Positions 17,199-55,823 of a stretch of DNA of 64,000 bases are shown one piece after another. Source of the stretch: Eubacteriales bacterium (GTDB lineage Bacteria > Bacillota > Clostridia > Oscillospirales > CAG-272); the NCBI GenBank assembly GCA_045657165.1, contig JAZOSP010000067.1, positions 3,268 through 67,267 on the forward strand, given 5' to 3'. Position 1 is the first letter of the stretch; each line of letters opens with the position of its first letter. Made by a program: the position numbers and the translations under genes. Below the pieces are notes generated by a model. The model saw nothing but the letters and a program-made list of their open reading frames with translations, was not told where the DNA came from and made no database searches.

Positions 17199-17262
17199 TT
17201 TATTTCTCCTTCTCAAAAACCGCTATTTTGCAAATAATTATTTGCTTTTTAGCCCATTTTTA

Positions 17263-17300
17263 AAAGGCTGAATCAAGTTTTACAAATTGATTCAGCCTTT
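17263..17300 (-). terminator. Strong hairpin at the end of the long minus-strand gene string (possibly bidirectional terminator)
   Basis: A perfect 14-bp stem pairs AAAGGCTGAATCAA (17263-17276) with TTGATTCAGCCTTT (17287-17300). The T-run is good on the plus side (GTTTTTG) and only short on the minus side. Confidence 0.5.
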
Positions 17301-17311
17301 GTTTTTGTCAA

Positions 17312-20300
17312 TTACTCTGCGGAATCATTCGACGCCGCCTCTTCGATAGCCGTCTCAGCAAGCCCTACATAATAATCGTAAGCATCGCCGAAATCGCCAT
17401 CAAAGACGGTCGCATCGTTGCCTGTAAGATTTACAGCCTTGAGTTCTGCGAGACATTGCTCGACATCGGCAAGAGCTTCCTCGCCAATATTTTCATAGAG
17501 AATAAGCGCCATCTCAAGTGCTATCAGCTTGTTAGCCGCATCTGCCACTGTCGCGGAGTAGTCCTCGTCAAGGAATTCCGCAAGAGCCTGATAGTAAAGC
17601 CCCATCTCACCCTCGAAGTAATATAAGAAGATGAACTGAGCGTCTGCACTGAGCCCACGGAAGTGATTGAGCACGTCAAGCACCTTGTCCTTGTCGTAAA
17701 CGTCGACATCGGCATCAGTAGACCACATAAGTGCCCAAAGAAGGTCGTAATTCTTAAGAAGGAACTCATCGAGAGTCGATTCAAAGTAATAATCGTAAGC
17801 GCTCTGACCTGAGAGTATCGTGTTTAGTGCGCTCACGTAAACCGTACGGTAGTTGGATACCATATAGTCGTAGGTCCAATAAACGGTAGTGGAGGGATCG
17901 TCGTCAACCCAATCGGGATTGGTCCACTTGTCAAGCTCCTTGTTCGAGTAAAGCTCCTCGTAGAAGTAGATTTTCTTTATATTATCCGGAGCTTCCATGA
18001 TTTGGTTTACTACCATCTCAAGCTTCTCATATGCGCTGAAGAAGAGACTGTAGAAGTTATATCCACTCTGAATGAGCGTGTAGGAAAGGTCAAGTGCTAC
18101 AACCGCCTCTCTCATTTCCTCAAACTCATCTGCCCACTCTCCAAGGTCAACATCCGGCTCCTCGGGAATCTCGGGCCTGTCGGCATAGGGTGCGCCCAGC
18201 TCTACGTACTTATCGTATATGTAGCCGAGATACAGGTCGAACGCGTCCTTATCATCCTGACTCATCGCGTTGCCGCTACAAAGAGTCTCTATAAGCCCCA
18301 TCTTTTCGGTGAAGGTGGTGTACCAATCAACGTTTGTGAAGCGCTGTGCATACGCCTCGGTTGCAACCATAAGAGCGACGTAAAGTGCCTTTGCCTCCTC
18401 GCCCTCAAATTTGCTCTCGTAATACTCCTTGAGTATATCAGCGAACAAGGACGAGAAGCCCTCGTATTCACCCGAAGCATCGAAGGAATAAGGAGGAATG
18501 CTCATAGCATAATAAACGTTGATAGCGCCAAGGAAGTTGAACTGCTGAGTCGGGCTAAGGCTTATATAAAGCGCAAGCATTGCCTCAACGTCTTCGGAGT
18601 ATGCGGCGGAATTCTTATATGAATCGTCCTCATCATTATAGCGCTTATCGATTATCTCCATATACTTATCCATAAGAGCGTGATAAGTATCGTTTCCGAG
18701 CAGTCCGCCCGAGAAGTGGTAATAACCGCCCTCGGCAGTGCGAATGTACTCAAGTATTTTATCAAAGGTATAGAGCTCACCTTCGGTGCTTAGTCCGAGC
18801 ATTCCGTTAAGAGGAATACCGTAGAAGAGCGTCTTTATCATCTCGTTGCCGTTTTTAACTACATCGTCGGCAAGCTGACACGCCTTATAATAGCAGTAGA
18901 AGAACTGAGAGGTATCTGCAACCGCGTATTGGCTTATCATGTTAATCTGATCCATAGCCATTGCTACGTAGGTGAACAGCTCGTCAAGCTCGGCAGGAAG
19001 GCGTATGTTTGCAAGACTAATCAAGGACGCGGCGTCCTCTATACCGAAGTAATACTCGTAGAGGAAGTCAAAGGCATCATCCTCTGCTCTCCACATAGAA
19101 ACGTAATAGAAGAGCTCGGTGTAAACGTAATTATAATAATCGCTGTTTACGATACAGTCAAAGATGTCTGCCACCTCATCAGCGTAGGTATTAATACCCT
19201 CGGTCGCCCAGTCCTCGGGAACGAGATCCATAAGAGCATCGAGTTCGAGCATATACTCAAAGATATCGATAATCTCCGCGTAGAGCTCAGGGTCGAGAAT
19301 CGGCTGATCGCCAAACAGAACGTCGGGAATAATCTCCTCAGTCGCAAACGCCTCTGTAAGAGCAATCAAAATATCCGAGTATTCATAAACAGGTCTGTCA
19401 TACACCTTAAGACCGTCAATTGCCGCTTCAAGAGCCGCCTCGCTCTCACAGACAAAAGCGAACGAGCCGTACTCGTCAATTCTGAAGGCTGCGTCAAACT
19501 CAGCGAAATCCACATACCAAAGGTCGTATGCATAAACCATAGCCGCACGGGCAGTATTCATCGTGTCCGTACGTGAGATGAGCGCCTTCTCGGCAGGCGA
19601 CATATCAAGATATAGCTCCATCATATAAATTGCCGTGTCGCCCTGCGCCTTTGTTATGTCGGGAGTCTCCTCACCGGTAAAGTCGAGATTCTTAAAAAGA
19701 GAAGCGTTCTTTTTGAAGAGAGATATATCGGTGTAGGTTATTTCTATCTCATAGGAGTCACTTACACCGTCTCTGTACTCTACGTAAATTGTTTGCTCAA
19801 GAGGGGTGGTTCTATGCGCCTCCGTTGCTGCCGTAAGATCAAAGCCCTCGGTCATATCTGCGGTAATCTCAACCACCTTTTCAAGCTTGCCGCCATTACC
19901 CTTAAGGGTAAACTTGCCGCCCGCAACGTTAATTTCGGTGTCGTGGCTGTTGTACGCAACCTTGTTCGGGCTCGTGAAGTCGACGCTCTCTATTTCATGA
20001 ACGTTTACGTCAAAGCTTGCGCTGTAATTATCACTGCCGTTAACATAGGTGGCGGTAAGGGTCTTTTTTCCTGTCGTATCGGAATTAAAGCCTGTAATAG
20101 AAACCTTATCGCTGCCAAAAATCACAGTGTAGTTGCTACCGTCATCTCTGGTTATCTTGACACGGCCGACGCTAAGATCAAGCGAGTCGCCCTCAAGATA
20201 ATCGGTCGCGTAATCAATCACCTGCATTCTGGGAACGACGGTGACGGTAAGCTCGACGGTCTTTCCCCCGTATGTAAGAGTTACCTGCTGCTCTCCCGCC

Positions 20301-20545: not shown

Positions 20546-20569
20546 TTTTTTAATTCTCCAATCATTAAT

Positions 20570-23326
20570 TTATTCCTCGGTCCAAATGGCGTAAAGCTTT
20601 CTGCCATCCTCAGCCTCGGAAAGATTTTCAGACGTGTAAAGCGCCGTTGTGGTGGTTGAGTTAGAGCCCCAACCATCAAATGTGTATCCCTCTCTTATCG
20701 GATCGGAAAGAGAGTTCGACGAATTAAGATTTTTTATATCTGCTTTCTCTATGTAAAGCACATAATCGTTATCCTCGGAAAGCGTGCAGCCGAATACCAC
20801 GGGGCGATAGGAGGAGTTCCAATACTTATCCCATCCCTCGGGCGCCGCATCAAGGTCAGTATAGACCGTAAGAGACGAGCAGCCGTAAAAGGCATGCTTC
20901 TCGATAATTTCTATCTCGCTTCCCAAAACCACAGAGGTAAGCCCCTTGCAGTTTCTGAATGCCTGCTTGCCTATAGATGACACAGAGGCAGGAATAATGA
21001 GAGTGTCAAGCTCCATGCAGCCGTAGAAGGCGTAGCTACCGACGCTCTCAACGCTTGCACCGATTTTAAGCGACGAGAGAGCCTCGCACTTGTAAAAGGC
21101 GTGATTCCCTATAGTCTTGGTGCTGTCGGGAATGACCACCGATACAAGCTTTTCACATTTGTAAAACGCCTTGTCGCCTATAGTCTCGACAGAAGAACCG
21201 ATTACGAGCTCGACAAGACCGGAGCACTTATAAAATGCCTTCTCGCCTATCGTTTCAACACCGTCGCCTATGTCGACGCGTACGAGAGACGCAAAGCCGT
21301 AAAACGCATTGCTTCCGATTGATTTTACGTTGTCGCCAATAATTAATGAATCAACACCGTGAATCACGGTTTCCAGCTCAACCTTTTCCTGATAGCCGCA
21401 ACCGTAGAAGGCAAAATCTCCGATTGACTCAACACTCGCGGGAATTGTGAATACGTCGCTTGCCGTATCGTCTTCCGCAGAAACGGCGTTGGTTGCGCAC
21501 TTATAAAATGCCGAGCGCCCTATGCTACGAAGCGCAGGGGGGAGAGCAAAAAGCTTAAGGCTCGAGCAACGGTAGAAGGTATAGTCCTCAATAACCTCAA
21601 GTGTGTCGGGAAGCGCTATCCGCTTAAGCCCCGAGCAATCGTAGAATGCCGCACGTCCTATGATTTTTACCGACGATGGAAGCTCTATACTCTCTAAGGT
21701 CGCGCAATTATAAAATGCATAGTTTGCTACGCCAACCGTGCCCTCGGCTATCTCGATTTCGGTATTCAGCGTTTCGAGATATCCTACTACCCAATTACCT
21801 GCGTAAACTACTCCGTCCTCGGAGGAATTGCCAAGCCCCGAGTCCTTGAACGCATAGGAGCCTACCGTCTTTACCGATTCGGGAATCTCAATGCTCTCAA
21901 GCATTGCACACTCTTGGAAGGCATTGTTGCCTATAGTCTTAAGACTGCTGAATTCAATCTTTGCGTCGACCGAATCAAACGAGCCGAGAATAACTACGGA
22001 AAGGTCAGTGCAAGCGATAAACGCCTGCTCGCCTATTTTCTCAACACCGCTTCCGATAACGATGTTGTTTATTTTCGATTTTGCAAAGGCTGCGTCTCCG
22101 ATAATTTTAACACTGTCAGGGAGTCTTACGGAAAACAGCTTGCTGTTATTAACAAGCGCAAAGCTTGCTATTCCTATCGTATCGGCTCTCAGCACAAGCT
22201 CCGTGGCAGTGCTGTCCTTGAGTCCGACAAACCATTTGCCAACGTAAACCTCGTTTTCGGTGGGGTTAAGCTCCCAAATTCCGGTGCTATGGAATGCACC
22301 CATACCGATAGCCTCAATTCCCGAGCCCAGGGTTATGTCAACGAGAGCCTCGCACTCATAAAACGCGCCCTCTCCGACCGTCTTAACACTGTCGGGAATG
22401 ACAATCTCGGTTATTTCGGGATTCGCTGAAAAGGCGTAATCGCCGATAACCTCAATGCCGTTTGAAAATACGACCTCGGCAAGCTTTTCGCATTTTGCGA
22501 AGGCGTACTGATCAATGGATAAAAGGCTCGCGGGAAGCTCAAGTGAGGTGAGCGACTTGCAGTCGGTAAACGCCATGCTTCCGATAGACTCAAGGCGGCT
22601 TCCAAAGCTAACCGACGAGAGCTCTCCGCAATATGCGAATGCATTTGCGGGTATCTCGGTCAGCCCCTCGGGGAAGACAACCTCACCCGAGAGCAGACGG
22701 CAGCTTGCAAATGCGTTAACGCCAAGCGAAGTGAGCCCCGAGGGAAGTGTAACCTCCGTAAGATAAGAGCAGTTCGCGAAAGCGTATTGACCGATATTTT
22801 TAACGTTCTTGCCAAAGGTTATGCCGGTAACGTCGCTTTTGTTAAAGAAGGCCTTGTTGCCGATAGAGGTAACGGGAAGTCCTCGATAGGTGTCGGGGAT
22901 GACTATGCTTCCCGTAGCAATTCCCTTGCCTGTTACCTCATACGCGGTTCCGCCATCGATAAGAGTAAATACCATGCCGGGCTCGCGCTCTCTTATGAAG
23001 GTTATTTCCTCAGACCATGCGGAATCGTTACTTACGTCAGTCTTTCCGTTTGCCTTGACCTTTATTTTGTAAGTGCCCTCGGCAAGATGGGAAAGAGAAT
23101 ATGTGTTTTTACTTGCTATGTATTCCTCGGCTTCATCGCCGTCCATCTGAATACTGATTGTGTAAAGACGTGCGTCCTTGACCTCATTCCATTTGAGGGT
23201 GAGAGTCGTCATCTCGACGGTGGGCTTGCCCGTGTTTGTAAGGTCGGGAAAACTCTCGCACGAGGTTATCATAAGCAAGCAACAAATTATAAAACTTAAA
23301 ACGATGAAGAAACGAGTTTTTTTCAT
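20570..23326 (-). CDS. BspA-type leucine-rich-repeat lipoprotein, 918 aa
   Basis: ORF track. Lipobox LMITSC, an N-terminal Fn3-like module, and many ~23-aa repeats of the form VxIPxSVxxIGxxAFxxCxxL (LRR_5/BspA type). The C-terminal Listeria/Bacteroides repeat reads GYTFDGWGSN...LYAIW. Confidence 0.85.
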   Translation of the reverse strand: MKKTRFFIVLSFIICCLLMITSCESFPDLTNTGKPTVEMTTLTLKWNEVKDARLYTISIQMDGDEAEEYIASKNTYSLSHLAEGTYKIKVKANGKTDVSNDSAWSEEITFIREREPGMVFTLIDGGTAYEVTGKGIATGSIVIPDTYRGLPVTSIGNKAFFNKSDVTGITFGKNVKNIGQYAFANCSYLTEVTLPSGLTSLGVNAFASCRLLSGEVVFPEGLTEIPANAFAYCGELSSVSFGSRLESIGSMAFTDCKSLTSLELPASLLSIDQYAFAKCEKLAEVVFSNGIEVIGDYAFSANPEITEIVIPDSVKTVGEGAFYECEALVDITLGSGIEAIGMGAFHSTGIWELNPTENEVYVGKWFVGLKDSTATELVLRADTIGIASFALVNNSKLFSVRLPDSVKIIGDAAFAKSKINNIVIGSGVEKIGEQAFIACTDLSVVILGSFDSVDAKIEFSSLKTIGNNAFQECAMLESIEIPESVKTVGSYAFKDSGLGNSSEDGVVYAGNWVVGYLETLNTEIEIAEGTVGVANYAFYNCATLESIELPSSVKIIGRAAFYDCSGLKRIALPDTLEVIEDYTFYRCSSLKLFALPPALRSIGRSAFYKCATNAVSAEDDTASDVFTIPASVESIGDFAFYGCGYQEKVELETVIHGVDSLIIGDNVKSIGSNAFYGFASLVRVDIGDGVETIGEKAFYKCSGLVELVIGSSVETIGDKAFYKCEKLVSVVIPDSTKTIGNHAFYKCEALSSLKIGASVESVGSYAFYGCMELDTLIIPASVSSIGKQAFRNCKGLTSVVLGSEIEIIEKHAFYGCSSLTVYTDLDAAPEGWDKYWNSSYRPVVFGCTLSEDNDYVLYIEKADIKNLNSSNSLSDPIREGYTFDGWGSNSTTTTALYTSENLSEAEDGRKLYAIWTEE

Positions 23327-23363
23327 CTGCCGCTCCTTTCAGGTTGCTTCAAAATACGATTCA

Positions 23364-26081
23364 TTATTTTTGAGATTCTCTCTCCGCTTTTCTTTGCTTG
23401 TATTCCCTTACCAGCTCGTGAGGCCACTTGAATTTGAACTTACGAACCGCAATATCGAGAAGAACGAATATTATCGCGAGAATCAAGAAGACTATGCGCG
23501 GATCAACTTCCTTCTTGAGGGTTTTTGAAAAGCTCTCAAAAACGGTAGCGGGATCCTCTACCTCCATTCCCTTGCCGTCAAGCGCGAGAATCGACAAAAG
23601 CTCCGCGCCAAGCGGTATTCTTTCGGGGAAATAATTATACTCCTCGGAATAGGAGAACGTTTTATAAAGCACCTGCTCTGATAAAAGAGCGCCCGCGGCG
23701 TCAAGCTTTTTGATTTTGATTTCGTAAAGGCCGGGGTCCTTTATCACAAAGGTATAGCGCCTTTTAGGCTCTGCAACCTTAACCGCAACTCCGTCCTCAA
23801 GAACCGATATCAGCGATTCCGATAAGGGCGTTACCTCAACTACGACGTTCTCGTTTTCGAGGGCGCCGTGAATACTCAGCTGAGTCGTATAGTTGTCGGT
23901 CTTGATAACGTATTCAAGATCGTTAACTCTGACGTCTTCCATCGGGAAAATGCAGTTAATAATATTCGAGATGATGGTCTGACCTACCGAATCACTCATA
24001 AACTTATCCGACCATATTCCGCTAAGGTCGCACATAAAGCTTCCGACGTTACCCTTGCCGTATTGCCACTGTGCGTATATCGGAACGTACTTGCCCATAA
24101 GCGGAACAGCCGCACCGTTTTTGGCAACGGTTCCGTAATAACCTGTGAGCGGTGGAATGTCAGCCTGCTCAATTCCCGCAAGAACACTCGTGCGGTCATT
24201 GATTGTAGGAATAAATTCCTCGCCGTAGGCTATCTCGGCAATCGCCTCAAGTGCAAGGTCGGTCTGCATATACTCGGGAATCTTCTGGAATTCGCCGTCG
24301 GGGATATTGTAGAACTTTCCGCCGCCCTCGGTTGCCGTATTGTTCATCTTCTCCTTGAGAGATGCGTCAATGCTTCCAACCGTGATAATGGACATTGTGA
24401 TACCGTCCTTGACGTTATCCTGAATGTATGGCAGATAGGTTTCGTAGGAATCTCCGGGGTTACCGTCGGTTACCATAATAATGTGCTTGCGTTCAACGTT
24501 TTCTATGACAGAAAGCGCTCTGCCCGCGCGCATTATCGCGTCGGAGAAGATAGTACCGCCGCTTGCCGTGGTGTCACTTTCGATATCCTTTATCGTCTGG
24601 CGTATCGTATCCCTCTGAGAAACGGGAAGAATCGAAAGCTCCTCGCTCGCTCTCGTCTGGAAGGTCATAACACCGCAGAAATCGCGGTCGTTTAGCGAGT
24701 CAAGACAAGCCTCAGCACCCTGTACGGCTGCCGGCAGCTTACCCATGCTCATAGACGCTGACGTGTCCACAACTATCATTACGGCAATCGGGGGCGTGTA
24801 ATCTATCGCATTGATAGGCAGCATCTGCTTAAAGTAGGTTGAATTCGCTATATCATTTCTGTTATATGCGTGAGGAACGAGAGTACCGCCAACGGTGTCG
24901 TTCGGGCCACCGACGGTGAAAAGACCGCCGCCGAGATTATAAACGTACTCGTTTAGCGCTTCCTCAAAGCCCGCAGGCATATCGCTGTACGCCACGTTAA
25001 CGAGAATAACCTGCTCAAAGTCAACCAGCTCCTCGACGGATTTGGGAATTGCGGCAAGGTCCTCGTCAAGGCTGAGCGAGGTTACGTTATAGGTTACGTC
25101 AAGAAGCTCGGCAAGCCTCTTGCCCTCGTCCTCTTTTCTTTCAATAAGAAGAATATTCTCAAACGCCTCAAGGTTTATGAAGGTACGATATGAATTGTTC
25201 TGCAAAACGGTATCGTTTGGGGTCGAAATCTCGAAGGAAAACTCGTGCATTCCCCTCTCCTCGATAACAAGCCCCAAGGAAAGCGTTTCCTCCTCCTTGT
25301 TAACCATCGTGACCGTCTCGCCGATAAGCTCGCCGTTATCGTATGCCCTGATAACCACAGCCTGCTGCTCGGTGCCGAGATTGCTCTTGATGGTCATCTC
25401 GGTTATGAATTCCTCGCCGAGAATAATGCCCTGCTCAGGAGTTTTTACGTTAACTATCTGCATTTCGCCGTGGCTTTCATTGGGGAAATGCACCGTGTCA
25501 ACCTTAATTCCCTCAGCCGCAACGGCTTTGATTACCGAAACCGCGGCATTGTCGGTTTCGATTCCGTCGGAAAGTATAACTATCTTCGCCGTTTGCTTGT
25601 TTGTAAACAGCGTGCTCGCATACTTGATAGCCGACGCAATATCCGTTGCCGTCGTATCCGGGTCGTCAGACTCCATATACTGCTCAAACGCTCCCGACGT
25701 GTTATGCGAGAGCTCAACGACGTACTTCTGGTCGTATCCGAATTTAACGATTCCAAGCTTGTAGTCGTTATCGCATATGTTGATGACAGAGCCGACGAAT
25801 TCTTCCTTGCTTTGATCCTCGCCCGTGCCGCTGTCGGTCGAGTCAACGAGAAGTATCACCTCGTTTTCAAGATTCGGCAGCTCGTAGGAGAAGGTTATTC
25901 CCGCAAGAAGATTTATCGCAAGCACCATCGCAATCATATGGAACGCCATTGACAGAATTCTGTTCCTCGTGCGGCGGTACTTCTTAGCCGCTCTGAAATA
26001 GGGTAAAAGCGTCAGTAAAGCCGCCGGTATCAACAGCAGCAAAAGCCACGGATGGCTGAAATTTATTCTGAAATTAGTCAT
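23364..26081 (-). CDS. Membrane-anchored VWA-domain protein (Bat-like), 905 aa
   Basis: ORF track. The N-terminal BatA-type anchor reads FSHPWLLLLLIPAALLTLLPYF. The VWA domain has the MIDAS motif VVDTSASMS. There is a C-terminal TM helix. Confidence 0.8.
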   Translation of the reverse strand: MTNFRINFSHPWLLLLLIPAALLTLLPYFRAAKKYRRTRNRILSMAFHMIAMVLAINLLAGITFSYELPNLENEVILLVDSTDSGTGEDQSKEEFVGSVINICDNDYKLGIVKFGYDQKYVVELSHNTSGAFEQYMESDDPDTTATDIASAIKYASTLFTNKQTAKIVILSDGIETDNAAVSVIKAVAAEGIKVDTVHFPNESHGEMQIVNVKTPEQGIILGEEFITEMTIKSNLGTEQQAVVIRAYDNGELIGETVTMVNKEEETLSLGLVIEERGMHEFSFEISTPNDTVLQNNSYRTFINLEAFENILLIERKEDEGKRLAELLDVTYNVTSLSLDEDLAAIPKSVEELVDFEQVILVNVAYSDMPAGFEEALNEYVYNLGGGLFTVGGPNDTVGGTLVPHAYNRNDIANSTYFKQMLPINAIDYTPPIAVMIVVDTSASMSMGKLPAAVQGAEACLDSLNDRDFCGVMTFQTRASEELSILPVSQRDTIRQTIKDIESDTTASGGTIFSDAIMRAGRALSVIENVERKHIIMVTDGNPGDSYETYLPYIQDNVKDGITMSIITVGSIDASLKEKMNNTATEGGGKFYNIPDGEFQKIPEYMQTDLALEAIAEIAYGEEFIPTINDRTSVLAGIEQADIPPLTGYYGTVAKNGAAVPLMGKYVPIYAQWQYGKGNVGSFMCDLSGIWSDKFMSDSVGQTIISNIINCIFPMEDVRVNDLEYVIKTDNYTTQLSIHGALENENVVVEVTPLSESLISVLEDGVAVKVAEPKRRYTFVIKDPGLYEIKIKKLDAAGALLSEQVLYKTFSYSEEYNYFPERIPLGAELLSILALDGKGMEVEDPATVFESFSKTLKKEVDPRIVFLILAIIFVLLDIAVRKFKFKWPHELVREYKQRKAERESQK

Positions 26082-26096
26082 CTTGCCATGCTCCTG

Positions 26097-29997: not shown

Positions 29998-30027
29998 TAT
30001 CTTTCTACCTTTATATTAATTAATTTT

Positions 30028-31164
30028 TTATATACTGTTATAATAAGTCTCGAAGAATTCGCGAAGCTCGGGAGGTATCTCTCCGTTTTGCTCGAAAATC
30101 TCAAGTGCCATCTGATAATACATATCAAGGTAATCTCTGTAATAGGTTTTTCCGTCGATAAATTGGTTTGAGTCCTCCCATTTACCGCCCGCGCCGACGC
30201 CTTGGCCGTCGCCCTTACCTTCGCCCTCGTCCTCGGTAGAGCCTTGACCGCCGTCGCTGTCGCCGTCGGAGCCCGAGCCGTCGCCCTTGTCGCCCGCGTC
30301 ACCGTTTTGCTCGCTGTCAGCGGCTGCCTCTCCGCCTGCGGGAAGGTCGTCTGCCTTGTCGCCCTCTTCGCCGCCTTGAGGTCCGCCCTCGGCGTCCTCG
30401 CCGTCCTCACCGTCTCCGTCTATAATTTCTTCAAATATAGCGAAAATCACGCGCTCCTCGGTTATGTTTCTATCGATTCGCTCGGTGGTTTCAAGACCGT
30501 CGTCCCAGCCGATGAACATCCAGCCGTCCTCCGCTACCGCAACGACGGGCGTCGCGTCCTCACCGGGCGCTACGAGCTGGTCTGTTTCGCCCTCGATTTC
30601 ACCGCCCTCGTCACCCTCAACAAGATAGGTAACGGGAATGTAATTAAGAAGCGGGTCGTCAGGCAAAATAACCTCGGGTCCGGGAGGAATTATATCATTC
30701 TCTGCAAGTCCCACGACGGTAGTCATCGTCGAGCCCAAAACCGCTGCAGCAACGGTCATGGCAACGACAAGCCTGCCAATCCTTATTCTTATCCGTCTGT
30801 TCTCTACCGACTTAAGGTGCTCTCTTGCATTCTCTCGCTGGAGATTTGCTATGTATGAGTCCTCCCTCTCGAGCTCGAGCATAGTAATCATACGCTCCTC
30901 AAGTCCGAGGCGGTCGACTCTCGCGGCAACCTCACGCTCCGTGGGCTTGAATTTAAGGAAATAGAGCAACATCGTGCTGATAACGGCAACTCCTATTCCG
31001 ACTCCTATCGCAAACCAAACTCCACCGAAGTCGAAGAGCCACGCGAATGCGGCAGCGAGGAAGTTAGCCCCAAATCCGATAGCAAGACCGACAAGACCTG
31101 CTTTTATAAGCCCCTCGAGAACGAGTCTATGATAATGCTTTTTGAATAATCTTTTTCCGTTCAT
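30028..31164 (-). CDS. Membrane protein with an extremely acidic Gly/Asp/Glu-rich segment, ~378 aa
   Basis: ORF track frame 30028..31308. I prefer ATG 31164 (MNGKRLFKKHY...) as the start. Two N-terminal TM helices and a third TM are followed by a B-repeat-like WMFIGWDDG segment. A ~90-aa stretch then reads DGDGEDGEDAEGG...GSGSDGDSDGG. I assign no family. Confidence 0.6.
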   Translation of the reverse strand: MNGKRLFKKHYHRLVLEGLIKAGLVGLAIGFGANFLAAAFAWLFDFGGVWFAIGVGIGVAVISTMLLYFLKFKPTEREVAARVDRLGLEERMITMLELEREDSYIANLQRENAREHLKSVENRRIRIRIGRLVVAMTVAAAVLGSTMTTVVGLAENDIIPPGPEVILPDDPLLNYIPVTYLVEGDEGGEIEGETDQLVAPGEDATPVVAVAEDGWMFIGWDDGLETTERIDRNITEERVIFAIFEEIIDGDGEDGEDAEGGPQGGEEGDKADDLPAGGEAAADSEQNGDAGDKGDGSGSDGDSDGGQGSTEDEGEGKGDGQGVGAGGKWEDSNQFIDGKTYYRDYLDMYYQMALEIFEQNGEIPPELREFFETYYNSI

Positions 31165-31383
31165 ATTTCTCTGTCTTTCATTCTTATTTTCACACAGCAT
31201 TTCGTGCAAAATCGAACGCAATATACTTAGGCACGAGCATATTGCGCTCTGTCTTGAACGAAATCTCTCTTTGGGCAGCGGGGCGCGCAAGGCGCCCCCG
31301 CCGAGCAAGCCGTAGCCGATTTTCAGGCTGCGGCTTGCCGCCCTTTTGGGTATTCGTGTTTCTTAATAAAGGATGATTAAAAA

Positions 31384-34300
31384 TCAGCTAACCTTGGTAA
31401 GAGTAACTTCAATAGTTCCGGTTTGATAGGAACTCCAATAACCTACACCAATGTAATAGGTTCCTGCTTCGGTGAAGGTGTAATTATAATTCTCCTCGTA
31501 ACCGCCGCCATCATATTTATTCTTAATCACGTTCTGATCTTCATCATAAATCCAAATAGCGTGGTCGCGGCTTGGACCTTCGATATGCTTAGTCGTAATG
31601 TTCCAAACCTCACCGGCATCAACGGTTACAACCAAGTAAACCTGACCGCCTTCGGTTTCCACAACACCAACGTACTGTCCGCCGGAAACACCCTCAAAGG
31701 CGAAGTCCATCGACTTACCTCTCATCTGCTCCTCAATCCACTCTGCTTCGGTGAGCCACTTAGCATAAAGAGTGGTCTTGGTAGCGCTGTAATAGCTGCC
31801 GGAAAGTGCCGCGCCCTCGAACTCAGCGTTGTCGTACCAGCCTACGAAGTACATATCGGTTCTCTCGGGAGTGGGAAGAGTGATGGTCATAGAGGTTGTA
31901 ATATCATCGTATACAGTACCGCCGTTGGACTCGAAGACGTAGGTATGCTCCTCACCGTCCCAGCCGAGGATGAATGCACAGTCACAATTCCAGCCGCTCG
32001 ACCAGGAAACGGTAGCGCTCTCAACGAGAATGGTAAGATTCTCACAGTCCTCAAATACGTCGTCGCCCATATAGACCTCGCCGACACCTGCGGGGATAAT
32101 TACGTTCTCAAGAGTCGTATTACCCGCAAATGCAGAGTCATAGAAGCCGTCAACGCCCTCGGGGATGGTGATTGCCGTATCGTCACCGATATAAGCAAGA
32201 AGATAGGTATCACCCTCATAATCGAAGAGAACGAAGTCGCCATCGGTAGTCAGTATGGTAGCGCCCTCGGTGGGTGTATACAGGTTAAGAGCGTAGGAAA
32301 CAACGTAACCGTAATCACCGTAATCGTCAAGCGTTATGGAAAGAGACGACTCGTTATATACCTCAACGAGCTTATAGCAACCGTAGAAGGCGTCGTAGCC
32401 GATTTCCTTAAGGTCTCTCGGGAGATTTACCGTATGGAGCTGATAGCAGTACATAAATGCGTACTCGCCGATATAGGTGAGTCTGTTAGGAAGAACTACC
32501 TCGTAGAGATTATCGCACCCACGGAACGCCTCATCCTCGATTACGAGAGGATCGGTGTCGCCTGCCTCAAAGATAACCTTGCGAAGGTAATCGTTACCGC
32601 TGAACAGACCCTCGGGTATAACGGTTATTTCCTTGGGGATAGTGATAACGCTGTCGGTCTTATTCGCGGGGTAAAGAACGAAGCCTGTCATATCCGCGGT
32701 GTAAAGAACGCCGTCAACTGCCGCGAAGTGCGAGCTGCCGCGCTCAACCTCGAAGGCGGATACACAGCCGTCGAAGCAGTTCGAGCCAATGGTCGAAACG
32801 GTTGCGGGAATAGTTACGGTCTCAAGCGCGTAGCAATATGCGAACATATAGCCGGGGAGCTCGGTTGCTCTCGTGTTGAGCACAACGGTAGCAAGCGACG
32901 AGCAGCTACGGAATGCCTCGAAGCCGAGCTGTGTCGTAGCAGCAGGGATAAGTATGCTGCTGAGCGACGTGCACTCCTCAAATGCAGACTCACCGATAGT
33001 GATTACCGACGAGGGAATCACGAAGTCGTCAAGAGCCGTGCACTGATAGAAGGTGAAGTTACCGATCTTTGTGCAAGCGGTACCGTCCTCAAAGATAACC
33101 GTAGTCAGCGACTCACAGCACTTGAATGCGCCGAAGCTGTAGCTATCTTCAAGATCCTTATCAGCAAGTTCCTTAACGCTTGCGGGAATGGTAATGGTCT
33201 CAATTCCCGTATAAGCGAAGGTGCCCTCGGGAATAGCCTCGAGCCTTGAGCCGGGAGCAAAGGTAACTATCTTAAGGTTAGCACATCCGCTGCCATCTCT
33301 GTTAGAGTTATTGCTGAAGGTGTTTTTACCAATGGTCCTGAGGCTTGCGGGGAAATGAACCTCAACAAGCGAGTCACAGTCGGTAAACGTCTTGTCGCCG
33401 AGAGAGAGGAGTCCCTCGCCGAAGGTCACGCTCTCAAGAGAGTAGCAGCCGTAGAATGCGGCACTGCCTATGCTGACTATGCCGTCGGGAAGAGTTACGC
33501 TGACAAGATCGGTGCTATAGAATGCCATCTCACCAATAGCAGCGAGGTTAATATTCTCGGCGAATTCAATCTCTGCAAGAGCCGAATTGTAGAACGCCTG
33601 CTCACCGATCTCGGCAAGTCTTGCGGGAAGCTCTATGCCCGTGAGAGCAGAGTTGTTATAGAATACCTTGTTTCCTATAACCAGCGCATTATCGCTGTCG
33701 TCAAGAGTCACGGTGCTAAGTCTCGAGCAGCCGCTGAACGCCTCGTTATCGATAAGGATAACGCTGCCGGGAACGTTAACGCTCTCAAGATAGGTACAGC
33801 CCTGGAAGGCAGCCTTGCCAATCTCAAGGAGTCCCTCGGGAAGGGTTACGCTGACAAGCTCGGTGTTACCCTTGAATGCACCGTCTGCAATGTACTTAAC
33901 GCCGTCGGGTACAGTGTAGGAGGTGGCGTCAAGAGTTGCGGGATAGTAAATAAGCTTTGTACCGTCGGCGCTGAACATTACGCCACCAACGAGTATGAAG
34001 CCTGCGTCAGTACCCGAGCCAATATTAATGGTCGAGAGATTGGGGCAGTTATTAACTACCGAGCTGTCAAAGCCGACAAGCCCAGCAGGAAGGCTGAGAA
34101 TTGCAAGCTCGGAGCAGCCGCTGAATACGTTTTTACCAAGAGTCTTTAAGTTGTTGGGAAGAGTCATTTCTATGATGGTATCACACTCAGCGAACGCCTC
34201 GTCTCCGATAGTCATATCATTCTCACCGCCAACGAAGGTAACAGCCTCGAGAGCTGCACAGCCATAGAAGGCTCTATCGTGAATTTTGGTTACTGTTGCG

Positions 34301-37300
34301 GGAACGCTGACCGTGCCCTCCATAGCCGAGGGGCAGAGTACGAGCTCGGTCATATCGGCGGTGTAAAGCACGCCGCCAACGCTCGCATAGTATCCGTCAG
34401 TACCGCTTACGGTAACAGACTTAAGCGCGTCGGTTTCGTTGAATACGCCGCTTGCAAGAGGAGGAATAACCTCACCCGTGTAGCTGGTGTAAGGAGCAAG
34501 CCTTGCGGGAAGCTCGATGGTCTCAAGAAGTCGGCAGGTATCAAATGCACCCTCACCTATCGTGAGCTCGCCCGTGCCGCCATCCTCAAAGATAACGGTG
34601 GTAAGAGAGTCGTAGAGGAAGTAGAATGCATACTTACCGATACCGAGACGGTCGTAGGTAATACCGGTGTCGGGGTCAAGTACGGGGTCAAGGTTGCGAA
34701 CCGACTTCGGGATGGTGATGGATACGAGATTTGCGTACTGGAACGCATAATCGCCTATCGTCGCAAGGCGGCTGTTCGTACCGAAGGATACGGTAAGATT
34801 GCCGGACCAAAGGCTTGAACCTGCATTATAGAAGGAGTACTCGCCTATCTCTACAAGACGCTCGGGAAGCGTCACGGTCTCAAGGTATCTGCACTGATAG
34901 AACACGTGACCGCGGTCGGTCTGCGTGATGGGAACGTCGTTCTGAAGGTAGGTATAGGTGAAGTTAGAGCCGAGAACGAGGTCGTCTGTGCCGCCCTCCT
35001 CAAAGGTAACGGTTTCAAGATATCCGCAGTTAGCGAATGCGTATGCGCCTATCTTGCTTACAGTCTTGGGAATGGTTATCGCCTCAAGATACGAGCAATA
35101 GTAGAAGGCATAGTTACCTATCGTCTCAAGAGTGCTCTCGGGAGCAAAGGCAAATCCACCGTAATAGCTGGGATAATAGCCGAGATAATCGCACTCGAAG
35201 AACGCGTAATCGTCAATAACCTTAACCGACGCGGGAACGGTGAAGGAATAGAGACCGTTGCCCGAGAAGGCATACTTACCGATGTACTCGAGAACAGAGC
35301 CCTCGGCATCTATCTCTACGTCTACGTAGGCGTAGTTATCTTCGCCCTCAGCGAAGCAGTAGTCACCGATGGTCTTAACGGTTGCGGGAATAACGACAGG
35401 ATCCGCGCTCCAAGAGCCGAATTCCGCATCGTAGAACGCATAAGCACCGAGAGTTTCTATACCGCTGTTAAGAACGATACCGTAATAGAACTCGGAGCGT
35501 GCAAACGCATATTCACCGATAGTCTTGGTGTGCTGAGGAAGCTCAATCTCGTAAAATTCAGCGCCCTCAAACGCACTCTTGCCTATGGTAAGAGAATCTG
35601 CGAAGGTCTCGCCAACGAAGTATATATCGTCGATGCTCGTATCTCTAAATGCATCGTCGCCGATAACCTCGATGGTGTTGGGGATATTAATAGTGCTAAG
35701 AGAGGAGTTGCCTCTGAAGACACCGTTCGCAATAACCTTTACGGTTGCGGGAACAGTGTATTCTCCGGTCTTTCCGCCGGGGAAGAAGAGAAGCTCGGTC
35801 TTATCCTTGTTGAAGAGAACGCCATCCTCAGCGGTGAAGTACTCGCTGGCGGGGTCAACAACAACCTCAGTAAGAGAGGTACAGCCGTTGAAGATACCGG
35901 GTATCTCAGAAACGTTTGCAGGGAGCTCTACTCTCGTAAGAGCGGTACAGTTGTTGAACACGTTCTCGCCGAAGGTAAGAGCCTTGTTGCTTGCGTTAAT
36001 GGTTATGGAAGCGAGAGTCGAGCAGCCGCTGAATGCGGAAGCTCCGACGTGGGTTACCGTTGCGGGAAGCTCGAAGCTCGTAAGAGCCGCACAGCCTGCA
36101 AACGCGTTATCCGAAAGGGTAACGAGACGGCTGTTCTTGATTCCTACCTCGGAAAGAGCCGTGCACGCGCTGAATGCGTACTTGCCGATAGTGAGGTCGG
36201 TGAGAGCGCCGCTTGCAAAGCTTACCGACTCGAGGTTTTCAAGGCCGTAGAAGGCAGCCTCGCCAACGAGGGTTACGGTGTTTGGTATAGACACCTCGGT
36301 AAGAGTCTCGCAGGCTGCGAAGGCACCGGGAGCTATCGTCTGAGTTCCTGCGGGAACTGCGAAGCTGCCGTCCTCGGCAGCAATAGCTGCGGGAACGTAA
36401 ACGAGAGTTCTGCCGTCAGCGCTGTAAAGAACACCGTTAACCGACTTGTATGCCGCGTTGCCGGTTGCAACCGTTATAGAAGAGAGAGCGGTGCAGCCTG
36501 CAAATGCGTCCTCAGCGGTATCAAGCTTAACTGCGCCATCTACGATAGCGTACTTCTGAAGCTTAATGCCGGTAAGTCTTGCGGGGAGAGTTATCTTCTC
36601 AAGAGAGGTACAGCCAACGAAGGCTCTGTCGCCAATCGCGAGAGGCTGCTCGCCGCTTGCAGTGCTAAATACAACGGAAAGAAGATTTTGTGCGTTTGCA
36701 AATGCTTCCCTGCCGATTCTGGTTACGCTCGCGGGGATAACGACCTTGGTTATCGAGGAGCCTGCAAATGCATTTTCGGGAATTTCAGTAATTCCCTCGG
36801 GAATGTTATAGGTGCCCGTCTTTGCCGTGGGCATGAAGAAGAGCCGCGGCTGTGCCGTCTGTGCGGTGCCGTTATCGAAGAGCACGCCGTCCTGTGACCA
36901 GAAGCGAGCGCTCACGCCGTCAACCGCGTATACGTTGATTGCCTCAAGAGCCGTGCAACCGGCGAAGGGAGAAATCTGAGAGATCTGCTCAATAGTAGCG
37001 GGAAGGTTGATAGTCTTAAGGTTCGTGCAGTTATAGAATGCATTACCTGCTATCATAGCTACGGGAAGGCCCTTGTAGGTTGCGGGAATATTTACCTCTG
37101 TTACGAGAGATATTCTGTCACCTGCGGAAACCATATAAGCGTCCTTGCCGTTTACCTTGGTCAAGGTGAACGAAAGCGAGGGATCTGCCCAGAAGGCGTA
37201 CATTTTTCCGCCGCCGATGGTGTCCCAAGGAGCAAGGCTGTTACCGTCCTGGTCGGTGTACTGAATACCCATACCGTAGGGTGCGCTGAACCAACCGCCG

Positions 37301-39450
37301 AAGGCTATCGTTGCGTCGTTTGCGGTGGGAACCTCAAGCTGGTAGTGTCCGTTATAGGGAACCTTACCGACAAGAGCCGTGCCCGTGCCGCCGTTGCCGT
37401 ACTCGTAGGTTATCTCATACTCGTTTGCTATGTAGCTTGCGTAGAGAACCATCGAGCCCGAGCCGGTGAAGAACTCATCGGTGTAAGCCTTACCGTTGCT
37501 CTCTGCGCCGCCGGGTACGTTGTACCAATCAACGAAGGTGTAGCCGGGCTTTACAGCGGTGGGAAGGTCCATCCTGTCGCCTACAGCCTTATACACAACG
37601 ATTATCTCGCTGCCGCCCAGAGTATCGAAGGTTACTGCGTGAGCATATACCTCGCAGGATACCCACTCGGAGCGAATCTTGCCGTCAGCAAAGCGAACCT
37701 TAACGGTGTTGAGACCCGCCTTGGTAAGAGCAACTCTTGCCGAGTTAACGTTGCCTGCAACGGTGATGATATCGCCGTCGTTTACCTGAATCTCGAAGTT
37801 AGCTACGCCGATAACGGGAGCCCACGTGAGAGTACTCTCGGAGTAGTTCACAAGGTTGCCCATAGCGTAGTAGCGCGCGCTTACGGTATCAGTCCAAGCA
37901 GAGGAGTTGCTGCCGTCGACCGCGCGAACGGTGATACGGTACTCGGTGCCCTCAACGTAGTTAAGGAGAGAAGCCATATCGAAGCTATCGGTCATAACCT
38001 CGTAGGTTTCATTATTAATCTTAATTTCGTACTTATCAGCCGCTTCAACCTCGCCCCAGCTGATAACCGTTCCGTTAACAGTGAGTCCTGTGGGAGTCTG
38101 AAGTGCCGTCTTTTCGTAAGCGAATTCGCTGGCTGCGGGAGAAATATATCCGTCGGTTACGGGATATACCTTTACAACAATACCGCCTGCGAGAGGAGCA
38201 CACTCCTTGAGGCTTACGAAGTTTGCGGTTCCGTTATTAACGAAGCCGTGGTTGTGGCTCTCGTCGCCGCACTTAACGGATACCATATAACGCTCTGCGT
38301 TTGCTACCTCATTCCAGATTACGGACTGAGTTGCCTCGTCAAAGCGAAGTCCCTCGACCGCGCTAAGCTCTCTCTTATAGACAAACTCGTCAGAGGTAGA
38401 GGAAGCGAAGCCGGTAGCGGTAGCCGTTACGGTGACCTTAATACCGTCAGCGGTCATCGGACAGTTGCTTATGTTGAAGAATCTGTTCGAGCCGTTATCG
38501 AAGCTCGTGTGGTTGTGGTCGGGGTTACCGCAGACAACGGTAACGTAGTACTTCTCTGCATTTTCAACGGTGTTGAAGATGAGCATAGTACCGCCGTCAA
38601 CCTTGAAGCCGTCTACCTTCGCAAGAGCATTGTGATTGTAGGTGACCTCAACCGAGGAGTTATCCTGCTCGCCGGAATTGGCTACTGCAGTTACTCTTAC
38701 GGTGTAGATTGCAGCCTCAAGCTGCTCAAAGGAAATCTCGTGCAGGTTAGCGCTCGTGCTCTGCTCGTAAACTACCTCTCCGTCGGGAGCTATGATAGAA
38801 ACTACGTAGGACCTTGCGCCTGCTATTGAATTCCAACTGACGAGAGTAGAGGTTACCTCTACTACGGGGTCGGGAAGCTGGGTATCAACAGCAATCTTTT
38901 CCCACTTTGCATACGCAGTTACGTTAGCGGAAATGGGAGCGCTGAAATTGAATACCTCGCTGTACTGTGCATCGGCATACCAACCGATGAAGTCGTAGCC
39001 CGTACGCGTGGGAGCTGTGGGCTCCGTAGCGAGCTTACCGTTAACAACGGTCTGGTTGTCAACTGCGCTGCCGCCGTTTTCCTCAAAGGAAACGGTGTAG
39101 TTGATTTTCTTGAGCAAGCGCATATTTGCGCCGTCATACTCAAGGGTAATGACAGTGTCGGCGTACGTAGCCGAGACGTTTTCCTTACCCTCGGCGTTGA
39201 AATCAAGAACAAGTAAGCCGTCTGTCAACGTGTAGGAGCCGGATTCGGTGCTGTTACCGTCAACAACGGTAAACGTATTTCCCGTGCTGAGTATAAGCGA
39301 GAACTCATCGTCCCCATCAGCATAGGAATAAACACCTATTTCCGGGAACTCCGGAGCGGGACCGGGATCATTACAGCTGACTGCCATGATGCTAAAGAGA
39401 GCAAGCACCATTATCAGCAGAGCTGAAATGATTTTTCTTTTCGTGTTCAT
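31384..39450 (-). CDS. Giant BspA-type LRR surface lipoprotein, 2688 aa
   Basis: ORF track. Lipobox IMAVSC with an AAGGAGG RBS. The N-terminus carries Listeria/Bacteroides repeats (GYDFIGWYAD) and several Fn3/Ig-like modules. About 1500 aa of LRR_5 repeats follow. The C-terminus has a further B-repeat and a PPC-like beta domain. Confidence 0.9.
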   Translation of the reverse strand: MNTKRKIISALLIMVLALFSIMAVSCNDPGPAPEFPEIGVYSYADGDDEFSLILSTGNTFTVVDGNSTESGSYTLTDGLLVLDFNAEGKENVSATYADTVITLEYDGANMRLLKKINYTVSFEENGGSAVDNQTVVNGKLATEPTAPTRTGYDFIGWYADAQYSEVFNFSAPISANVTAYAKWEKIAVDTQLPDPVVEVTSTLVSWNSIAGARSYVVSIIAPDGEVVYEQSTSANLHEISFEQLEAAIYTVRVTAVANSGEQDNSSVEVTYNHNALAKVDGFKVDGGTMLIFNTVENAEKYYVTVVCGNPDHNHTSFDNGSNRFFNISNCPMTADGIKVTVTATATGFASSTSDEFVYKRELSAVEGLRFDEATQSVIWNEVANAERYMVSVKCGDESHNHGFVNNGTANFVSLKECAPLAGGIVVKVYPVTDGYISPAASEFAYEKTALQTPTGLTVNGTVISWGEVEAADKYEIKINNETYEVMTDSFDMASLLNYVEGTEYRITVRAVDGSNSSAWTDTVSARYYAMGNLVNYSESTLTWAPVIGVANFEIQVNDGDIITVAGNVNSARVALTKAGLNTVKVRFADGKIRSEWVSCEVYAHAVTFDTLGGSEIIVVYKAVGDRMDLPTAVKPGYTFVDWYNVPGGAESNGKAYTDEFFTGSGSMVLYASYIANEYEITYEYGNGGTGTALVGKVPYNGHYQLEVPTANDATIAFGGWFSAPYGMGIQYTDQDGNSLAPWDTIGGGKMYAFWADPSLSFTLTKVNGKDAYMVSAGDRISLVTEVNIPATYKGLPVAMIAGNAFYNCTNLKTINLPATIEQISQISPFAGCTALEAINVYAVDGVSARFWSQDGVLFDNGTAQTAQPRLFFMPTAKTGTYNIPEGITEIPENAFAGSSITKVVIPASVTRIGREAFANAQNLLSVVFSTASGEQPLAIGDRAFVGCTSLEKITLPARLTGIKLQKYAIVDGAVKLDTAEDAFAGCTALSSITVATGNAAYKSVNGVLYSADGRTLVYVPAAIAAEDGSFAVPAGTQTIAPGAFAACETLTEVSIPNTVTLVGEAAFYGLENLESVSFASGALTDLTIGKYAFSACTALSEVGIKNSRLVTLSDNAFAGCAALTSFELPATVTHVGASAFSGCSTLASITINASNKALTFGENVFNNCTALTRVELPANVSEIPGIFNGCTSLTEVVVDPASEYFTAEDGVLFNKDKTELLFFPGGKTGEYTVPATVKVIANGVFRGNSSLSTINIPNTIEVIGDDAFRDTSIDDIYFVGETFADSLTIGKSAFEGAEFYEIELPQHTKTIGEYAFARSEFYYGIVLNSGIETLGAYAFYDAEFGSWSADPVVIPATVKTIGDYCFAEGEDNYAYVDVEIDAEGSVLEYIGKYAFSGNGLYSFTVPASVKVIDDYAFFECDYLGYYPSYYGGFAFAPESTLETIGNYAFYYCSYLEAITIPKTVSKIGAYAFANCGYLETVTFEEGGTDDLVLGSNFTYTYLQNDVPITQTDRGHVFYQCRYLETVTLPERLVEIGEYSFYNAGSSLWSGNLTVSFGTNSRLATIGDYAFQYANLVSITIPKSVRNLDPVLDPDTGITYDRLGIGKYAFYFLYDSLTTVIFEDGGTGELTIGEGAFDTCRLLETIELPARLAPYTSYTGEVIPPLASGVFNETDALKSVTVSGTDGYYASVGGVLYTADMTELVLCPSAMEGTVSVPATVTKIHDRAFYGCAALEAVTFVGGENDMTIGDEAFAECDTIIEMTLPNNLKTLGKNVFSGCSELAILSLPAGLVGFDSSVVNNCPNLSTINIGSGTDAGFILVGGVMFSADGTKLIYYPATLDATSYTVPDGVKYIADGAFKGNTELVSVTLPEGLLEIGKAAFQGCTYLESVNVPGSVILIDNEAFSGCSRLSTVTLDDSDNALVIGNKVFYNNSALTGIELPARLAEIGEQAFYNSALAEIEFAENINLAAIGEMAFYSTDLVSVTLPDGIVSIGSAAFYGCYSLESVTFGEGLLSLGDKTFTDCDSLVEVHFPASLRTIGKNTFSNNSNRDGSGCANLKIVTFAPGSRLEAIPEGTFAYTGIETITIPASVKELADKDLEDSYSFGAFKCCESLTTVIFEDGTACTKIGNFTFYQCTALDDFVIPSSVITIGESAFEECTSLSSILIPAATTQLGFEAFRSCSSLATVVLNTRATELPGYMFAYCYALETVTIPATVSTIGSNCFDGCVSAFEVERGSSHFAAVDGVLYTADMTGFVLYPANKTDSVITIPKEITVIPEGLFSGNDYLRKVIFEAGDTDPLVIEDEAFRGCDNLYEVVLPNRLTYIGEYAFMYCYQLHTVNLPRDLKEIGYDAFYGCYKLVEVYNESSLSITLDDYGDYGYVVSYALNLYTPTEGATILTTDGDFVLFDYEGDTYLLAYIGDDTAITIPEGVDGFYDSAFAGNTTLENVIIPAGVGEVYMGDDVFEDCENLTILVESATVSWSSGWNCDCAFILGWDGEEHTYVFESNGGTVYDDITTSMTITLPTPERTDMYFVGWYDNAEFEGAALSGSYYSATKTTLYAKWLTEAEWIEEQMRGKSMDFAFEGVSGGQYVGVVETEGGQVYLVVTVDAGEVWNITTKHIEGPSRDHAIWIYDEDQNVIKNKYDGGGYEENYNYTFTEAGTYYIGVGYWSSYQTGTIEVTLTKVS

Positions 39451-42041: not shown

Positions 42042-42043
42042 TC

Positions 42044-43105: not shown

Positions 43106-43131
43106 AAAAATCTCCAATCGCTAAGATCCGC

Positions 43132-44451: not shown

Positions 44452-44474
44452 TTATATTTCCCTCGGCAAAAAGA

Positions 44475-46997: not shown

Positions 46998-47014
46998 AGA
47001 TTTCTCCTTTATAT

Positions 47015-48121: not shown

Positions 48122-48122
48122 T

Positions 48123-55766: not shown

Positions 55767-55823
55767 TTGGGTTTCCTCGAATTTTTTTCCTATCAAAATT
55801 TTTATTTTTTAGTCACGCACGTT

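Follow-up and report, generated by a model that had tools for sequence, protein, structure and literature searches.

Leucine-rich-repeat lipoproteins conserved with a Bat-type MoxR/VWA module in a gene cassette of uncultured Clostridia

Operons that combine a MoxR ATPase of the MRP type with DUF58 and BatA-BatB genes occur widely among bacteria, and aerotolerance, envelope integrity and virulence have all been linked to them. The Bat operon consists of moxR, a DUF58 gene and batA, batB, batC, batD and batE (BB0170-BB0176 in Borrelia); to our knowledge, neither the substrates nor the mechanism of Bat-type operons have been established since its description in 1999. In the bifidobacterial PFNA cluster (pkb2, fn3, aaa-atp [a MoxR of the MRP type], duf58 and tgm) MoxR was proposed to help fold the FN3 surface protein (PMC8430577), and the mycobacterial moxR1 operon lies beside ripAB, with MoxR1 reported to aid the export of RipA (PMC12067865). 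Here we describe an eight-gene cassette in a 64-kb stretch of DNA (64,000 nucleotides, the window) from contig JAZOSP010000067.1 of a Eubacteriales bacterium, in which a four-gene core of the MoxR/DUF58/VWA kind is set among genes for leucine-rich-repeat (LRR) lipoproteins. By comparing the cassette across related genomes, we argue that the module and the LRR surface proteins very probably work together, and that their proximity is not due to chance.

The cassette consists of eight consecutive minus-strand open reading frames (ORFs) at 17312-39450 (about 22 kb), all co-oriented in the ORF list of the window. The first gene encodes a giant LRR lipoprotein of 2688 residues (31384-39450). It is followed by the genes for an acidic membrane protein of 378 residues, here termed FlgMem, with a Flg_new_2 match in Pfam (30028-31164); the MoxR AAA+ ATPase (364 residues, AAA_3 and AAA_lid_2 in Pfam, 28903-29997); a DUF58 protein (299 residues, assigned by Pfam, 28004-28903), whose gene has start/stop overlaps with those of MoxR and BatA-VWA; the BatA-type membrane protein BatA-VWA (636 residues, BatA_N and VWA_2 in Pfam, 26097-28007); and a second membrane VWA protein of 905 residues (two VWA domains and a weak GATase1_like match in Pfam, 23364-26081). 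The last two genes encode an LRR_5 lipoprotein of 918 residues, LRR918 (20570-23326), and an immunoglobulin-like (Ig)/alpha lipoprotein of 1077 residues with Big_3 matches (17312-20545), the variable final member of the cassette. The junctions, in gene order, are gaps of 219 and 30 nt, overlaps of 1 and 4 nt, and gaps of 15, 37 and 24 nt. The ORF list and Pfam thus bear out the eight-gene string reported in the preliminary description of this DNA, with its spacing, sizes and domains. A terminator-like hairpin with a 14-bp stem and a U-rich 3' side (17263-17300, minus strand; dG -19.6 kcal/mol, z -5.1) sits 12 nt past the last stop codon and is the probable 3' end of the transcription unit; no comparable terminator was found inside the eight-gene string. 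Scans for consensus promoters and terminators scored at the level of shuffled sequence and were uninformative.

On its domain content the four-gene core is of the MRP-type MoxR/DUF58/VWA (Bat-type) operon kind: the AAA_3 ATPase has intact Walker A and B motifs and a lid, the DUF58 gene lies directly downstream, and genes for VWA proteins lie alongside. In Pfam searches none of the eight proteins matched a TPR or BatD family at E <= 0.01, and since BatC, BatD and BatE are absent the cassette falls short of a full Bat operon.

Conservation of the cassette was surveyed with the 636-residue BatA-VWA as anchor, which has 1353 relatives in the protein collection. Taking one genome per species left 166 relatives, of which the best 80 loci (36-71% BatA-VWA identity) were analysed; these were mapped by phmmer with the window proteins as queries, and all counts take only loci with enough flanking DNA. 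The first two neighbourhoods inspected (68-70% identity) had an identical nine-gene order. Throughout the sample, an LRR_5 gene lies directly 3' of the gene for the 905-residue VWA protein (70/70 loci) and an LRR gene directly 5' of FlgMem (54/55); FlgMem itself is present in 56 of 57 loci, the 905-residue VWA gene adjoins BatA-VWA in 77 of 80, and MoxR and DUF58 are both present in 46 of 57. Gene order that recurs in 70 of 70 and 54 of 55 informative loci is far beyond chance. The flanks vary: near relatives have OppF upstream and a TIM-barrel gene downstream (OppF together with a small ORF upstream in loci L085 and L087), and in the remaining clades the neighbours are AraC, Peptidase_M28, ribosomal or S8-LRR genes. 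Because the flanks differ between clades, it is the cassette, and not the surrounding region, that is the conserved unit. Several genomes carry two or more paralogous cassettes, again with gene order kept. These gene orders give good support to a functional coupling between the LRR lipoproteins and the module, since the linkage holds down to 36% identity, with variable flanks and across within-genome paralogues. The linkage thereby proves to be conserved well beyond this strain, in 80 species-level genomes; its absence elsewhere had been named in the preliminary description as grounds for rejecting the idea.

The genomes that carry the 80 loci are species-level genomes of uncultured gut or rumen Clostridia, labelled at NCBI as Eubacteriales, Oscillospiraceae, Christensenellaceae, Ca. 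Gallimonas and Ca. Scatosoma. A complete cassette (L073, CAVDSZ010000007.1) also occurs on a contig labelled Akkermansia muciniphila, which is probably mis-binned, as all other carriers are Clostridia. MoxR (71-94% identity across relatives) and DUF58 (64-88% for complete genes) are far more conserved than the envelope proteins, and the identity of LRR918 drops from 59% to 33% in step with the drop of BatA-VWA from 71% to 36%.

The most informative result of the comparison is the existence of cassettes without MoxR and DUF58. Ten of the 57 informative cassettes lack both genes. In a neighbour-joining tree of BatA-VWA, one large monophyletic clade is made up of such 'type B' cassettes, and three further independent losses of the pair are seen (L035, L062 and L071); L047 keeps DUF58 only, and L020 appears to keep MoxR only. 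In the type B loci examined, FlgMem lies 10-170 nt from BatA-VWA (the longest distance is 169 nt, in L091), with no remnant genes seen between them. All type B cassettes keep the giant LRR gene, FlgMem, both VWA genes and LRR918, and all except L062 and L071 keep the Ig/alpha gene as well. Since the cassettes without MoxR and DUF58 keep the LRR, VWA and FlgMem genes, the hard-wired link is that between LRR lipoproteins and VWA membrane proteins: this is the obligate association, and not that of the LRR proteins with MoxR. The earlier suggestion that the giant LRR proteins are clients or partners of a MoxR-VWA pair is thus upheld in its coupling, by the deep conservation, and shifted in its object, primarily to the VWA proteins and away from MoxR. 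Duplication has evidently copied the LRR genes along with their own VWA pair, the ATPase and adaptor having become dispensable in cis. In half of the ten cassettes without both genes (all of them in the monophyletic clade) a full cassette is present in the same genome, among the best 80 of 166 loci, and the MoxR/DUF58 pair can apparently be shared in trans. These cassettes constitute a natural experiment on sharing one ATPase pair among several cassettes.

MoxR matches PF07726 (AAA_3, E 5e-62) and PF17863 (AAA_lid_2, E 1.5e-18), and its Walker A (GVPGVGKT) and Walker B (DEINR) motifs are conserved at least at the 90% level in 55 orthologues. The DUF58 protein (PF01882, E 5e-31), whose gene overlaps moxR by 1 nt, is VWA-like, with a conserved DxSxS motif (D-C-S-A-S). 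Both proteins lack a signal peptide and a transmembrane (TM) segment and are predicted to be cytoplasmic, DUF58 because it has no TM segment. BatA-VWA has the N-terminal double-TM BatA domain (PF07584, 36.6 bits against a cut-off of 25.9, residues 1-78), a VWA_2 domain at 92-200, some 400 further residues of ectodomain and a C-terminal TM anchor. The 905-residue protein consists of an N-terminal TM hairpin, two VWA domains, a GATase1-like region and a C-terminal TM segment with a basic tail; it scores 16-22 bits with the NCBIfam BatA/PRK13685 models, far under their cut-offs of 380-432. Across the two proteins Pfam finds VWA_2, VWA and VWA_3 matches. DUF58, BatA-VWA and the second of the two VWA domains in the 905-residue protein share a conserved DxSxS motif, that of the metal-ion-dependent adhesion site (MIDAS); in this last domain Thr and Asp follow downstream. 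In both membrane VWA proteins the loop connecting the TM hairpin is rich in Lys and Arg, and basic residues follow the C-terminal TM segment, from which the positive-inside rule predicts an outward orientation of the VWA and GATase1-like domains. In the BatA-like protein BB0173 of Borrelia, the VWA domain was shown experimentally to be exposed to the periplasm (PMC5700661). The positive-inside rule and this precedent together place the VWA domains in the same compartment as the lipoproteins.

The three large lipoproteins have N-terminal lipoboxes, found by inspection of the sequences (…AVSC, …ITSC and …LASC). The giant protein matches LRR_5 (PF13306) in 14 stretches at E 3e-252, in addition to Flg_new, and is laid out as a lipobox, Flg_new and fn3-like modules, about 14 LRR_5 (BspA-type) blocks, and a C-terminal Flg_new and beta-sandwich region. 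LRR918 (LRR_5, E 6e-169, seven stretches) has an N-terminal fn3-like module and a C-terminal Flg_new domain. With tandem LRR_5 blocks in an exported protein, both the giant LRR protein and LRR918 are BspA-type; matches to the NCBIfam models adhesin_HupY (222 bits, cut-off 1250) and Gli349 (104 bits, cut-off 1750) arise only through the repeats. Complete giant LRR genes of relatives encode 2558-2832 residues, and complete LRR918-type orthologues, 33-59% identical over 93-100% of their length, have 845-1006 residues (nearly all 901-1006). Such lengths are unusually constant for repeat adhesins, and the genes found at matching positions are genuine orthologues.

The 1077-residue protein, by contrast, is the least conserved member of the cassette, being replaced or absent in 19 of 67 loci: the Big_3/alpha gene closes the cassette in 48, a gene for an unrelated lipoprotein longer than 1000 residues does so in 11, and eight lack a final gene. 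Its AlphaFold2 (AF2) model (mean pLDDT 89) shows three Ig-like (Big_3) domains followed by an acidic, aromatic-rich all-alpha domain of about 800 residues, for which no meaningful relative was found among solved structures. The term orphan, which the preliminary description had used for this protein, fits the alpha part and not the whole, as Ig-like Big_3 domains occupy the N-terminus. The replacement lipoproteins are found in L056, L057, L062, L065, L069, L071, L073, L076 and L080-L082, which belong to one distant clade; they have roughly 1200-1460 residues or more (all run off the end of the locus) and N-terminal Flg_new domains. Homology with the 1077-residue protein was considered and rejected, as hhalign aligned the signal peptide alone and Pfam gave only Flg_new.

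FlgMem, in which Asp and Glu make up 20% of residues, starts at the ATG at 31164, a start that is very likely real because 63 orthologues align from that methionine. Its AF2 model (mean pLDDT 70, with low confidence at 250-330) agrees with the conservation profile. Model and profile together give the order TM hairpin, cytoplasmic helical segment, third TM segment, extracytoplasmic Flg_new_2 beta domain, disordered and very acidic linker, and two C-terminal helices. The most conserved motif of the family (R82, D84, G87, L88, E90, R91, T94, Q109 and R110) lies in the predicted cytoplasmic helical segment, and the C-terminal two-helix motif is also conserved among orthologues. A Foldseek search of the PDB with FlgMem returned nothing below E 0.8, and a search of 1.84 billion cluster representatives returned only relatives of the same architecture and Flg_new repeat proteins. 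Twelve of the 63 orthologues have sub-threshold matches to the N-terminal TM region of DUF4175 (best E 9e-4), with other TM-hairpin families matching about equally often, and one orthologue is named 'phage holin family protein' in the NCBI annotation.

The one wide junction of the cassette, the gap at 31165-31383 between the giant LRR gene and FlgMem, is kept at about 90-300 nt in relatives. In the window it contains a long imperfect hairpin (31199-31264, minus strand; minimum free energy (MFE) -34.6 kcal/mol, z -5.1) that ends about 35 nt before the FlgMem start codon and is followed by no U tract. Hairpins of different sequence occupy the same position in L001, L006, L010, L085 (z -8.7), L087 and L052, and compensatory changes can be made out by eye. 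For L002 and L084 the computed MFE structure retains just the inner stem, although to the eye the outer arms look complementary. All gap hairpins were assessed by single-sequence folds, in which none was found in distant clades. A possible role of the hairpin is in RNA processing or stabilisation, by which it would set how much giant LRR protein is made relative to the downstream products. Rfam, at gathering thresholds, has no match anywhere in the 64-kb window.

Around the cassette, the downstream neighbour is a xylose-isomerase-like TIM-barrel gene (16302-17216) with its own terminator. On the upstream side an Opp ABC transporter operon and a small ORF are encoded by the same strand; between the Opp operon and the giant LRR gene the sequence is structured, with two hairpins and a stretch rich in U. 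The small ORF, at 39567-39857 (minus strand) between OppF and the giant LRR gene, encodes 96 residues with a hydrophobic C-terminus and no Pfam match; an ORF of 84-85 residues occurs at the matching position in L085-L088. The region 39787-55796 (minus strand) comprises the Opp-type transporter, whose OppA is a lipoprotein of 840 residues, then a Flg_new lipoprotein of 380 residues and a protein of 2557 residues in which S8 subtilase, PA and Fn3-like domains are joined to LRR_5 repeats (S8-LRR). The best-matching gene to this last protein lies directly downstream of the cassette in L020, L022, L023, L026 and L030, of which only the first 206-276 residues fall within those loci. Farther away, a single ORF of 860 residues at 61074-63656 (minus strand) encodes an unusual fusion: a complete EF-G-like GTPase (GTP_EFTU, EFG_III/IV/C) is followed by a YacP-like NYN nuclease domain at the C-terminus.

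We think it somewhat probable that the proteins of this conserved eight-gene cassette come together as an assembly that is anchored in the cytoplasmic membrane and lies on its outer face. In such an assembly the BatA/BatB-like VWA proteins, each held by an N-terminal TM hairpin and a C-terminal TM segment, would form a platform with the VWA (MIDAS) and GATase1-like domains exposed on the outside, on which FlgMem, the Ig/alpha lipoprotein and both LRR-solenoid lipoproteins would dock. Docking would probably proceed through metal-ion-dependent MIDAS contacts to acidic residues, as the partners are acid-rich. On the cytoplasmic side, MoxR and its VWA-like adaptor DUF58 may supply ATP-driven assembly or activation. 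Their target could be the short loops and tails that the VWA proteins expose to the cytoplasm, the conserved helix in the cytoplasmic part of FlgMem, or precursors still awaiting export. A single MoxR/DUF58 pair may serve several paralogous cassettes in trans. Once assembled, the complex could present its LRR surfaces to ligands on the host, on food particles or on partner cells. A more far-reaching version, that of a clade-wide envelope machine in which integrin-like, doubly anchored VWA proteins and giant LRR lipoproteins are held in fixed geometry under inside-out control by MoxR/DUF58, is possible and rather doubtful; if true, it would make the LRR lipoproteins the first physical partners to be identified for a Bat-type MoxR module, and that operon family would gain a concrete client.

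The proposal of a membrane-anchored assembly is supported by the tight or overlapping junctions, by the placement of a terminator-like hairpin only after the last gene, by the gene order kept under changing flanks and in paralogous cassettes, by the predicted outward position of the VWA domains, by the conserved MIDAS and Walker motifs, by the constant lengths of the LRR proteins and by the MoxR1-RipA and PFNA precedents, and we infer that the cassette proteins form a physical complex. It is also supported by the joint divergence of the orthologues: distance matrices of LRR918 and BatA-VWA correlate with r = 0.91, the same value as between the two VWA proteins, against 0.55-0.57 for each versus MoxR. 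Several observations weigh against the proposal. MoxR and DUF58 are cytoplasmic while all proposed partners are outside, which leaves the transfer of energy or information across the membrane unexplained; the cassettes without MoxR and DUF58 show that the ATPase is not needed in cis, and the other half of these cassettes have no full cassette in the same genome among the best 80 of 166 loci. Common phylogeny and similar rates of evolution inflate the distance correlations. Expression of the giant LRR gene could be uncoupled from the rest by the conserved, roughly 200-nt gap and its hairpin, and Bat genes elsewhere can be independently transcribed, inactivation of Francisella moxR having left Bat protein levels unchanged (as reported in PMC3557215).

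One alternative is co-expression alone: a Bat-like module for envelope maintenance or stress and independent LRR adhesins would be needed under the same conditions, with no contact between them. The gap and hairpin after the giant LRR gene do suggest partly separate expression, and Bat-type operons have been tied to aerotolerance and envelope phenotypes without known protein clients. We consider this explanation unlikely, since co-regulation rarely keeps the strict order, adjacency and length of seven genes to 36% identity through repeated duplications, the duplicates copy the VWA pair with the LRR genes and not the LRR genes alone, and the usual BatC, BatD and BatE partners are missing. Distinctly unlikely, in our estimate, is a strict chaperone-client relationship, in which MoxR and DUF58 hold or unfold long LRR precursors before export and the VWA proteins are adaptors at the export site instead of permanent partners. 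Such a relationship has a precedent in MoxR1 and RipA and agrees with the lack of signal peptides and TM segments in MoxR and DUF58, with the giant protein (2688 residues) an unusually long client; it is at odds with the 10 of 57 cassettes that have no MoxR/DUF58 in cis, with signal peptides of ordinary Sec/lipoprotein type that lack a twin arginine, and with VWA domains, the usual MoxR-binding adaptors, predicted to lie outside the cell and not at its cytoplasmic face. To sequence analysis, client and structural-partner roles would look alike.

The neighbouring genes suggest a further scenario of protein or peptide foraging, with the LRR lipoproteins capturing, the S8 subtilase-LRR protein degrading and Opp importing, and the MoxR-VWA module as an accessory. 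The Opp operon does lie directly upstream on the same strand, in the window and in near relatives, and an S8 subtilase-LRR gene lies near the cassette in the window, its best match following the cassette directly in five loci of another clade. This scenario is weakened because the Opp and S8-LRR neighbours are not conserved across the other clades, and the structured region parts the Opp operon from the giant LRR gene; we regard it as very improbable. Least probable of all, and scarcely credible, is synteny inherited without any functional link in a young clade with rare rearrangement: although all carriers belong to one group of uncultured Clostridia, their divergence is deep, the envelope proteins being 25-40% identical, the flanks are rearranged around an intact cassette, within-genome paralogues keep the order, and the junctions are tight or overlapping.

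The cassette names candidate partners for a Bat-type module, namely the two LRR lipoproteins, the Flg_new membrane protein and the Ig/alpha-solenoid lipoprotein, and what such a module acts on becomes directly testable. In abundant gut and rumen Clostridia, so far uncultured, some giant LRR proteins of the BspA type would, to judge from the cassette, be components of an assembly of several proteins and not free-standing adhesins.

Among described systems, two candidates were considered and set aside. The ternary conflict system of MoxR, vWA and beta-propeller proteins (Kaur et al. 2020) does not fit, as the bpMoxR model gave 40.5 bits versus 208 for AAA_3 and neither beta-propeller nor effector is present; nor does anti-phage defence, for which PADLOC gave weak single-protein AAA matches only and no system. 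The closest likeness is to the Bat operon: the cassette has MoxR, DUF58 and then two membrane VWA proteins, its MoxR is of the AAA_3/MRP type, its first VWA protein has the BatA N-terminal double-TM domain, its VWA domains are predicted to be extracytoplasmic like that of BB0173, and the function is poorly understood. The cassette differs in having two BspA-type LRR lipoproteins, an Ig/alpha lipoprotein and a Flg_new_2 membrane protein in place of BatC-E, in its much longer VWA proteins (636 and 905 residues) with C-terminal TM anchors, and in its host, which belongs to the Bacillota (Clostridia), whereas Bacteroides and the spirochaetes are classical diderms. For the pairing of a VWA domain with an LRR protein, eukaryotes offer a model: the A1 domain of von Willebrand factor binds the LRR protein GPIb-alpha, and the MIDAS metal of the integrin I-domain binds an acidic residue of the ligand. 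These are analogies only, with no evolutionary relationship implied and no AAA+ partner, and by such analogy VWA-LRR pairing would be a workable mode of interaction.

Two further systems resemble the cassette in placing an MRP-type MoxR and DUF58 beside envelope or surface proteins. The PFNA cluster likewise conserves a MoxR(MRP)-DUF58 pair beside a large surface/adhesion protein in gut bacteria, but it belongs to Actinomycetota and has a Ser/Thr kinase, a transglutaminase-like membrane protein and an FN3 protein, and no VWA protein of the BatA/B type; by Pfam, neither the cassette nor the genes next to it encode a kinase or transglutaminase domain. The moxR1 operon shares with the cassette an MRP-type MoxR, DUF58 and a VWA membrane protein adjoining genes for exported envelope proteins, whereas its client is a Tat-exported NlpC/P60 peptidoglycan hydrolase encoded in a separate operon, and it has a single VWA protein and no LRR or Flg_new protein. 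A full-text literature search found no paper that links MoxR to BspA-type LRR proteins or describes the cassette; one preprint that apparently mentioned DUF58 was discarded, the match being the prefix of DUF5819. The preliminary description had taken a dedicated surface-assembly system to be, as far as known, undescribed for BspA-type adhesins, and this stands in so far as no description was found, while the general concept has precedents in PFNA (PMC8430577) and in MoxR1-RipA (PMC12067865). What is new beside these systems is the class of partner, the BspA-type LRR lipoproteins, and the conserved cassette of seven to eight genes in which they occur.

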